DNA from: a virus
Lineage: Monodnaviria; Loebvirae; Hofneiviricota; Faserviricetes; Tubulavirales
Reading direction: 5' to 3' (one strand)
Virus record (IMG/VR): IMGVR_UViG_2529293044_000013
Length of the DNA: 4,509 nt
Shown: positions 417-4,509 of the stretch, one piece after another
How the letters are laid out: each line of letters starts with the position of its first letter
Position numbering within the stretch: position 1 is the stretch's first letter
Notes under the pieces: generated by a model
Database searches by the model: none
Told to the model about the DNA's origin: nothing
The model's input: only the letters and a program-made list of their open reading frames with translations
Made by a program: the position numbers and the translations under genes

Positions 417-2012
<1,596 letters not shown>

Positions 2013-2016
2013 TTCA

Positions 2017-2187
2017 TCACCAGTAAAAACTAAATGGTTTTACAATTCGACGGAAATCCTGATCGGCTTTTTCAAGAATAACTGAAACAACATATTCTTC
2101 AATGGTTGTATTTTTATTGTAAATAATTCTTTCTATCTGCTCGACAGTGTATTCTGGCAATTTAACTTTAAATTCTTGAGTAGACAT
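2017..2187 (-). CDS. Unlisted small ORF, 56 aa, hydrophilic, function unknown; stop overlaps the RBS region of the pIII-like gene
   Basis: Hand translation of the minus strand: ATG at 2187..2185 preceded by GAGG (tttgtGAGGttttATG). Product [56 protein letters not shown], stop TGA at 2019..2017, 5 nt before the pIII ATG. Below the apparent length cutoff of the ORF track. Confidence 0.4.
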
Positions 2188-2277
2188 AAAACCTCACAAA
2201 TTAGATTTAAAGCCAATGACGCAACATAACCCACAAAGGGAACCAAACATCATAAAAATAAAATCAAACATAAATAT

Positions 2278-2305
2278 CCAAAAAAAGGGCGGAATATCCG
2301 CCCTT
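2278..2305 (-). terminator. Rho-independent terminator directly downstream of the major-coat-like gene
   Basis: Plus strand aaaaaaaGGGCGGaatatCCGCCCtt. On the minus-strand RNA this is an 8-bp GC-rich stem (AAGGGCGG / CCGCCCUU) with a 5-nt loop, followed by a run of U (seven A on the plus strand at 2280-2286). The major-coat stop is at 2322-2324. Confidence 0.75.
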
Positions 2306-2321
2306 CCTCATAAAAAACAAC

Positions 2322-2570
2322 TCAGATACTTCTGATGGCTCCCCATACTTTACGAACGCCAGCAAAAGTCAGATAAACTGTAACTCCTGCAACACCGATA
2401 GAAAGAATAACAGCAGAAACAGAAGACATATCAATACTGTTAGTCAATGATGAAAAATCGACTGTACCAGCAAAAGACGGAGATACAGCAAGAGCAGAAG
2501 CAGCGGAAAAAGATAAAGCTGCAACTTTCTTATCAACACCCTTAAAAAAATTGGTCATTTTTGCAAACAT
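2322..2570 (-). CDS. Major coat protein (pVIII-like), 82-aa precursor
   Basis: Start chosen at the ATG at 2570..2568 because AAGGAG lies ~9 nt upstream (ttaatAAGGAGactttaattATG); the track ORF 2322..2630 is a 5' over-extension. Product MFAKMTNFFKGVDKKVAALSFSAASALAVSPSFA / GTVDFSSLTNSIDMSSVSAVILSIGVAGVTVYLTFAGVRKVWGAIRSI: signal-like leader, then ~48 aa with acidic N-terminus, hydrophobic core and basic C-terminus, the classic inovirus major coat layout. Followed by the intrinsic terminator. Confidence 0.75.
   Translation of the reverse strand: MFAKMTNFFKGVDKKVAALSFSAASALAVSPSFAGTVDFSSLTNSIDMSSVSAVILSIGVAGVTVYLTFAGVRKVWGAIRSI

Positions 2571-2750: not shown

Positions 2751-4509
<1,759 letters not shown>

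Follow-up and report, generated by a model that had tools for sequence, protein, structure and literature searches.

What is a 56-residue, hydrophilic open reading frame (ORF) doing between the coat-gene terminator and the adsorption protein gene of a filamentous prophage? This question is raised by ORF56, which lies on the minus strand of the inovirus record IMGVR_UViG_2529293044_000013 (4,509 nucleotides [nt]; this whole stretch is referred to as the window), directly upstream of a pIII-like gene, here called gIII. ORF56 is a genuine gene, because comparative evidence and a confident fold prediction agree on it, and by sequence comparison it is an accessory gene limited to one Escherichia coli inovirus prophage lineage rather than a core inovirus gene. 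Its N-terminal domain very probably adopts the ribbon-helix-helix (RHH) fold, and there is about an even chance that the protein is a dimeric DNA-binding repressor that is made at a low level. The gene and its two parts are as follows.

2017..2187, minus strand: ORF56, 56 amino acids (aa), ATG start codon at 2187-2185 and TGA stop codon at 2019-2017, RefSeq WP_000107046.1 family (from the ORF list and the Prokaryotic Genome Annotation Pipeline [PGAP] annotation of E. coli AST20)
2065..2178, minus strand: predicted RHH domain, residues 4-41, with strand EFKVKLP, helix A at about residues 12-25, an N26-x-T28 turn and helix B from residue 29
2026..2064, minus strand: C-terminal extension (the tail), residues 42-54, D-x-D-F-R-x-[IV]-V-K-P-F-S-F, from the invariant columns of alignment A2 (see below)

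A sequence-only reading of the window had pointed to a hydrophilic 56-aa ORF at these positions, and the ORF list confirms it, on the minus strand; the encoded protein has 9 acidic and 8 basic residues and lacks a hydrophobic stretch. The same reading had called the ORF unlisted, which is incorrect, as PGAP already lists it as the hypothetical protein WP_000107046.1. In at least one genome, L025, no PGAP annotation of it is present. The length of ORF56 alone is no better than chance, and the ORF list for this AT-rich window holds about a dozen nongenic ORFs of 56 aa or more. A word-indexed protein search with ORF56 returned near-identical E. coli proteins only, and an exhaustive HMMER search (phmmer, 1.84 billion representatives) added one 63-aa protein with 44% identity, which defines a second sequence type (type 2, the window copy being type 1). 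A profile search then gave 18 further type-2 clusters, all from E. coli or gut metagenomes. The phmmer match outside these E. coli types, the 1840-aa repeat protein P0006, was rejected as a chance match with an E-value inflated by its repeats.

Alignment A2 comprises 22 sequences (21 protein clusters and the window copy) that fall into the two types, with a size range in the protein family of 56 to 64 aa. The reading frame is open in all 22 sequences and in 10 of 10 distinct locus haplotypes, the start codon is kept across variants as ATG or GTG, and in every locus the gene is found at the same place, after the coat-gene terminator and before gIII. Between the types, 44% of the nucleotides differ, yet the length is identical up to F54, the hydrophobic pattern is maintained at 43% identity, and the proportion of nonsynonymous differences (pN) is 0.37 versus a saturated synonymous value (pS) of 0.72 by the Nei-Gojobori method. 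The tail is the most conserved part of the protein: no within-type substitution falls in residues 42 to 54, and between the types the motif D-F-R-x-[IV]-V-K-P-F-S-F is retained through synonymous changes at most codons, including Ser53, which is encoded by agt in one type and tct in the other.

The gene has a narrow distribution. Type-1 DNA is present in 27 of 5,426 complete E. coli genomes, and no homologue was found in species-representative genomes of other species. More distant relatives of the phage were obtained via their Zot proteins (31 to 46% identical) from annotated phages and from species-representative genomes, and about 28 of these loci had a parsable gIII region. ORF56 is absent from all of them and from three deposited genomes that have the same module. 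In these relatives, which come from Enterobacterales, Pasteurellaceae, YpfPhi, and others, a tiny orf24-like gene directly adjoins gIII. The order coat gene, terminator, orf24, gIII, DUF2523 gene, Zot gene, and secretin gene is shared with YpfPhi/CUS-1 and the Haemophilus/Pasteurellaceae prophages, whereas the extra ORF between the tiny gene and gIII is seen only in the E. coli lineage. Since no relative has an ORF at this junction, ORF56 is a lineage-specific insertion into an older orf24-gIII junction, and the noncoding DNA around it amounts to 6 nt upstream and 4 nt downstream. Two checks had been proposed in the sequence-only reading: close relatives in E. coli keep the frame, but it is missing from every more distant relative examined, and a homology search finds the two E. 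coli types but, with the single protein, no meaningful match in Pfam, NCBIfam, PADLOC, or PDB.

What kind of protein ORF56 encodes is indicated by structure prediction. A single-sequence AlphaFold2 (AF2) model (predicted local distance difference test [pLDDT] score of 60) was too weak and was left out of the fold searches. With the 22-sequence alignment, the best AF2 model reached a pLDDT score of 81 and shows an extended N terminus followed by helices at residues 12-25 and 29-49; DSSP assigned no strand to this monomer model, as expected. The model has the β-α-α topology and helix packing of an RHH domain of about 40 to 45 residues. In Foldseek searches against PDB, the top matches were almost only RHH proteins, namely, StnY, KacA, Arc, TacA1, AmrZ, CopA, CopG, the PutA DNA-binding domain, ORF56 of pRN1, AtaR, ParD, and NikA (probability, 0.9 to 0.99; target-normalized TM score, up to 0.85), and Arc-type and CopG repressors were also matched in the viral structure library BFVD. 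By sequence, 19 of the 22 members matched phrog_582, "Arc-like repressor" (best E-value, 0.0056; residues 2-42), 20 of the 22 matched phrog_876, "transcriptional repressor," and in a PDB profile search the KacA RHH domain aligned over residues 2-42 (E-value, 1.1). Matches to HTH_40, RFC lid, Pox_VLTF3, and GRAM (E-values, 0.01 to 0.15) were discarded as noise. The alignment shows the alternation of hydrophobic and polar or basic residues of an RHH strand in both types (E5-F6-K7-V8-K9-L10 in type 1 and E5-I6-R/K7-L8-Q9-I10 in type 2). N26 and T28, just ahead of helix B, are invariant in A2, with a T27A change in L009/L010 between them; this N-x-T turn, which would contact the DNA backbone, takes the place of the G-x-S/T usual in RHH proteins. 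These lines are individually weak but agree with each other, and together they make an RHH fold very probable for the N-terminal domain.

How ORF56 would be expressed is suggested by the signals on either side of it.

2278..2306, minus strand: intrinsic terminator after the coat gene, an inverted repeat, kept in type 2, that forms the left boundary of a divergent cassette (see below)
2194..2271, minus strand: orf25, an unannotated 25-codon hydrophobic gene, MFDFIFMMFGSLCGLCCVIGFKSNL, the first cistron past the terminator
2192..2196, minus strand: orf25/ORF56 junction, where the orf25 stop codon TGA (2196-2194) overlaps GAGG (2195-2192), as read from the sequence
2017..2021, minus strand: likely Shine-Dalgarno sequence of gIII, GGTGA, with the ORF56 stop codon embedded in it, as read from the sequence

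The terminator that had been placed upstream of ORF56 is real as judged by its fold: GGGCGGA-ata-TCCGCCC followed by a run of seven T residues, at about 2280-2305, has a folding energy of -18.9 kcal/mol (z = -4.3), which none of 200 shuffled sequences equalled. ORF56 is not the first gene of the post-terminator transcription unit, as had been supposed, since the conserved orf25 (2271..2194) precedes it. The proposed ribosome binding site, GAGG, does lie 4 nt before the ATG codon, but it is not free-standing, being overlapped by the orf25 TGA; in type 2, this junction reads TGAG-ttttt-ATG, with a weak Shine-Dalgarno sequence.

At the other end, the ATG codon of gIII is at 2012-2010, and the spacer from the ORF56 stop codon is 4 nt (tgaa), not the 5 nt counted before. 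The suggestion that the ORF56 stop overlaps the gIII ribosome binding site is borne out, in that GGTGA at 2021-2017 can act as the Shine-Dalgarno sequence. Instead of the 4-nt spacer of type 1, type 2 has either a GTGA overlap with a gIII GTG start codon or a 14-nt overlap, so that in no variant is the ORF56 stop more than 4 nt ahead of the gIII start or more than 14 nt past it. Of the translational coupling that had been proposed, the juxtaposition thus stands, conserved in three forms, but no RNA structure masking the gIII start was better than those of shuffled sequences (z, +0.2 to +0.8). The arrangement fits termination-reinitiation, and coupling, if real, would operate by proximity. Because only 6 nt and 4 nt of noncoding DNA flank ORF56, we infer, as the simplest reading, a three-cistron relay in which transcripts that pass the coat-gene terminator are translated by ribosomes handed along from orf25 to ORF56 to gIII. 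Such a relay would give ORF56 a low stoichiometry like that of minor virion proteins.

The C termini of type-2 proteins vary (GG, GR, GRLL, GGWS, WGWS, and GGGREIK) because the T and G runs ahead of the gIII GTG codon change length and shift the frame. The G run is the likely gIII Shine-Dalgarno sequence in this type, and the runs are located at 905-937 in L002, 10160-10183 in L004, and about 1000-1026 in L013.

A regulatory or chaperone-like role had been considered possible for ORF56; given the predicted RHH fold, a regulatory role is the better guess, and from the same prediction we infer the following. The first 41 or so residues would adopt the RHH fold, with helix B running on into the conserved tail. 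The protein would dimerize and place a β-ribbon carrying E5, K7/R7, and K9/Q9 in the major groove of an operator, the dimer would repress transcription and so feed back on the transcription that it shares with gIII, and the tail would mediate dimer-dimer cooperativity or the binding of a partner. A protein of the DNA-binding type would then sit directly in the translation chain that feeds the adsorption protein. Filamentous prophages alter the behavior and virulence of enteric bacteria, but except in the Ff phages little is understood about how they keep the output of their minor virion and export proteins low. Should the late operon or some host gene be regulated by ORF56, the protein would offer a simple way of acting on phage production or on immunity to superinfection in E. 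coli inoviruses.

Several observations weigh against this repressor model. There is no room beside ORF56 for a private promoter or operator: the interval 2188-2278, which had been proposed for promoter mapping, is almost wholly taken up by the conserved orf25 coding sequence, and neither type has a sense-strand match to the sigma-70 consensus in the interval from the terminator to ORF56. A search for operators near ORF56 found weak short repeats and no convincing repeated motif; a cluster of TTTATG at 2185-2314 was rejected, since it consists of ATG codons behind T runs and the total count is not above expectation. The fold prediction itself has soft spots, as four of the five AF2 models scored lower (57 to 74) and the underlying alignment contains two sequence types only. 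The Foldseek E-values are just 0.06 to 1, as expected for so small a domain, and no RHH family was matched by sequence with statistical significance: the PHROG E-values were 0.005 to 0.08, Pfam RHH families at E-values of up to 10 gave nothing except RelB-like (0.15, in 4 members), and neither DUF1778 nor ParD of Pfam was matched. Within types, there are about 9 nonsynonymous versus 2 synonymous events (pN/pS of about 1), all in residues 1-41, and the N-terminal domain is thus either loosely constrained within types or relaxed in decaying prophage copies. Among ORF56 carriers, the replication modules are of at least three unrelated kinds (Rep_trans, a Phage_GPA protein of 666 aa, and a Rep protein of 411 aa), while the block from a 57-aa ORF through the secretin gene is shared, the gene thus staying with the structural module; the presence of several unrelated replication/regulation modules argues against a role for ORF56 in the main lysogeny switch of the phage. 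Finally, the idea that ORF56 is a paralogue of the 70-aa putative repressor of the phage (described below) was dropped, with an hhalign probability of 0.1.

Small RHH genes just upstream of a dosage-sensitive gene, with feedback on shared transcription, are familiar from arc-ant of P22, copG-repB of pMV158, and antitoxin-toxin operons. Like Arc and CopG, ORF56 belongs to the 45- to 56-aa class and has, by structural match and by its Arc-like PHROG matches, the β-α-α RHH fold, and by analogy with arc-ant and copG-repB it would directly precede, and share an operon with, a gene that must be kept at a limited dose. Unlike Arc and CopG, it has a conserved C-terminal extension, shows no significant sequence similarity to them, and has no accompanying noncoding DNA and no operator or promoter that we could find, and the downstream gene encodes a virion adsorption protein and not a regulator or replication protein. 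Inoviruses do carry accessory RHH proteins, such as the PfiA antitoxin of Pf4 and the omega-like ORF13 of Pseudomonas phage PMBT54 (PMC13048266; PMC10534721), but those genes lie in accessory or maintenance regions and not between the coat gene and gIII, and exhaustive HMMER searches detected no sequence relationship of ORF56 to either of them. In the literature searched, no account was found of the present E. coli phage group or of an RHH gene before gIII, and the YpfPhi/CUS-1 reviews and the UPphi paper describe no gene like ORF56. RHH proteins are thus known as inovirus accessory genes, but not at this position, and ORF56 adds a new sequence family to a well-known fold, at a location that is unusual but can be explained.

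Among the alternatives to a repressor, the one that survives best, although it is unlikely, is an antitoxin-like adaptor, in which the RHH domain would be a dimerization scaffold, the tail would bind and modulate a conserved phage or host protein, and DNA binding would be secondary or absent. The invariance of the tail and the antitoxin-like best structural matches keep partner binding alive, and RHH antitoxins such as TacA/KacA (DUF1778) and ParD also have C-terminal extensions, whereas that of ORF56 is only about 13 residues long. A partner might conceivably be a host factor or, on the phage side, pI/Zot through its cytoplasmic ATPase domain. However, unlike TacA/KacA and ParD, ORF56 has no toxin gene beside it or in the phage parts examined: the next gene encodes the exported pIII, the upstream gene encodes a 25-aa peptide, no Pfam toxin domain was found in those ORFs of the window and of L001 that were scanned, and PADLOC gave no match. 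The tail matches no known motif either, its sole outside match being the chance hit P0006.

It is less probable still that ORF56 is a translational relay only, kept so that ribosomes reinitiate at gIII and set the output of pIII, with a peptide of little or no function. The stop/start juxtaposition in three different forms, the weak Shine-Dalgarno sequence of type 2, and the within-type pN/pS ratio of about 1 would all be in keeping with such a role. A pure relay is nevertheless unlikely, because the relatives couple orf24 to gIII directly without ORF56 and because the tail is kept at the amino acid level through synonymous changes; in addition, length and hydrophobic pattern are retained at 43% identity, the predicted fold has a pLDDT score of 81, and no structure masks the gIII start.

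The location of ORF56 within the structural block and its linkage to the cassette encoding the pIII N terminus might suggest a minor virion or morphogenesis protein of the pVII/pIX type, but this is very improbable, as the protein has no hydrophobic segment or signal peptide, is missing from the 28 or so related inoviruses that have the rest of the module, and has the predicted fold of a cytoplasmic DNA-binding protein; the neighboring orf25 matches the minor-coat profile far better. A chance ORF without a product, for which the frequency of such lengths in an AT-rich window and the omission by PGAP in L025 could be cited, is effectively refuted by the comparative data, that is, a frame open in two deeply diverged types, pN below pS, a fixed position, a kept start codon, and a confident fold.

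The tiny gene upstream of ORF56 is conserved as well. Its type-2 counterpart in the same place is MWEFIFMMYGSLCGLCCVMGFKSNM; between the types, pN is 0.14 and pS is 0.73, with 9 codons differing synonymously and 5 conservatively, and within types there are synonymous changes only. By these comparisons, orf25 is under strong purifying selection. Homologues of 22 to 31 codons occur right after the coat-gene terminator, abutting or overlapping gIII, in about 28 loci, with the consensus xxWxxxFFxWGxLCAxAVIxGLxG. They come from Klebsiella, Scandinavium, Brenneria, Phytobacter, Arsenophonus, Yersinia pestis (YpfPhi), Haemophilus, Mannheimia, Rodentibacter, Glaesserella, Actinobacillus, and a few metagenome-assembled genomes that are more distant. 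Coordinates of the gene outside the window include the following.

662-739 in L002: orf25 homologue
6086-6160 in L023: orf25 homologue
6391-6465 in L024: orf25 homologue
2432-2554 in L038: orf25 homologue

The orf25 family is a candidate for a pVII/pIX-like minor coat or assembly peptide. As a gene of 22 to 31 codons that is conserved in many genera and unannotated in the records checked, it may be useful for inovirus annotation, including that of YpfPhi, and may prove more widely useful than ORF56.

The remaining features of the window give the setting in which ORF56 is inherited.

417..2012, minus strand: pIII-like adsorption protein gene (gIII), 531 aa; the product carries a signal peptide, a linker of Gly/Thr/Ser repeats, and, at its C terminus, a conserved anchor domain
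700..2320, minus strand: divergent cassette comprising orf25, ORF56, and the N-terminal domains and repeat linker of pIII
2322..2570, minus strand: major coat protein gene, 82 aa, phrog_2186 virion structural protein (E = 2.9e-14), with a weak match to Pfam Phage_Coat_B
3096-4199, minus strand: Rep_trans replication gene, with its first ~127 nt replaced by an IS100 end from about 4166
Minus strand: 111-aa gene at the gene V position, phrog_14411
Minus strand: 57-aa hydrophobic ORF, between the 111-aa gene and the coat gene in gene order
Minus strand: DUF2523 (pVI-like) gene, after the pIII-like gene in gene order

The pIII-like assignment rests on matches of the C-terminal part to phrog_7187 and phrog_3942 and on synteny with the DUF2523, Zot, and secretin genes. 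In a sliding-window comparison with the type-2 locus L002, identity across the cassette is mostly 50 to 70%, with a few 50-nt windows at 78 to 86%, while the flanks are 94 to 100% identical, and identity returns to 94 to 100% across the pIII C-terminal domain. Per-gene pS values are 0.11 to 0.12 upstream of the terminator versus 0.60 to 0.73 inside the cassette. ORF56 is thus passed on together with the host-range part of pIII, as a single cassette. Recombination apparently set the limits of the cassette at the terminator on one side and at the Gly/Thr repeat linker of pIII on the other. This linker (about 780-990 in the window, minus strand) consists of (GT)n- and (GSGT)n-type repeats that are near-perfect repeats at the DNA level, and its length varies between copies and types; gIII is 1596 nt here and 1650 nt in AST20.

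One could speculate, though we consider it doubtful, that orf25, ORF56, and the receptor-binding half of pIII form an exchangeable cassette in which the RHH protein is a cassette-specific regulator matched to adsorption specificity. If so, ORF56 might hold the output of pIII and the late operon at a set point, or it might instead repress a host gene, for example, that of the phage receptor, and so bring about type-specific superinfection exclusion. A transcription factor would then be embedded in, and coinherited with, the host-range determinant of a filamentous phage.

E. coli AST20 has the same element in intact form and in tandem (NZ_AP043617.1, 1784030-1791137), and there the Zot (pI) and secretin genes follow. 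Compared with AST20, the window has a 1301-bp deletion at 258|259 that removes the 3' end of the pVI gene, the whole Zot/pI gene, and the 5' end of the secretin gene, so that the copy in the window is a prophage in decay. The stretch at about 4166-4509 is one end of an IS100 element (IS21 family).

At the usual repressor position, the phages have a divergently transcribed gene of 66 to 70 aa (11982-12194 on the plus strand in L001 and 445-645 on the minus strand in L006) with an RHH-like pattern and no Pfam match, which faces repeated GCGCATGCG motifs upstream of the Rep operon. A GC-rich stretch of 143 nt is 92 to 93% conserved despite the unrelated replication modules (12327-12469 on the minus strand in L001, 60-202 in L006, and 4824-4959 in L020). 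As a folded element it was no better than shuffled sequences (z, 0.82); it might encode protein, or it might be an element related to an origin or to packaging.
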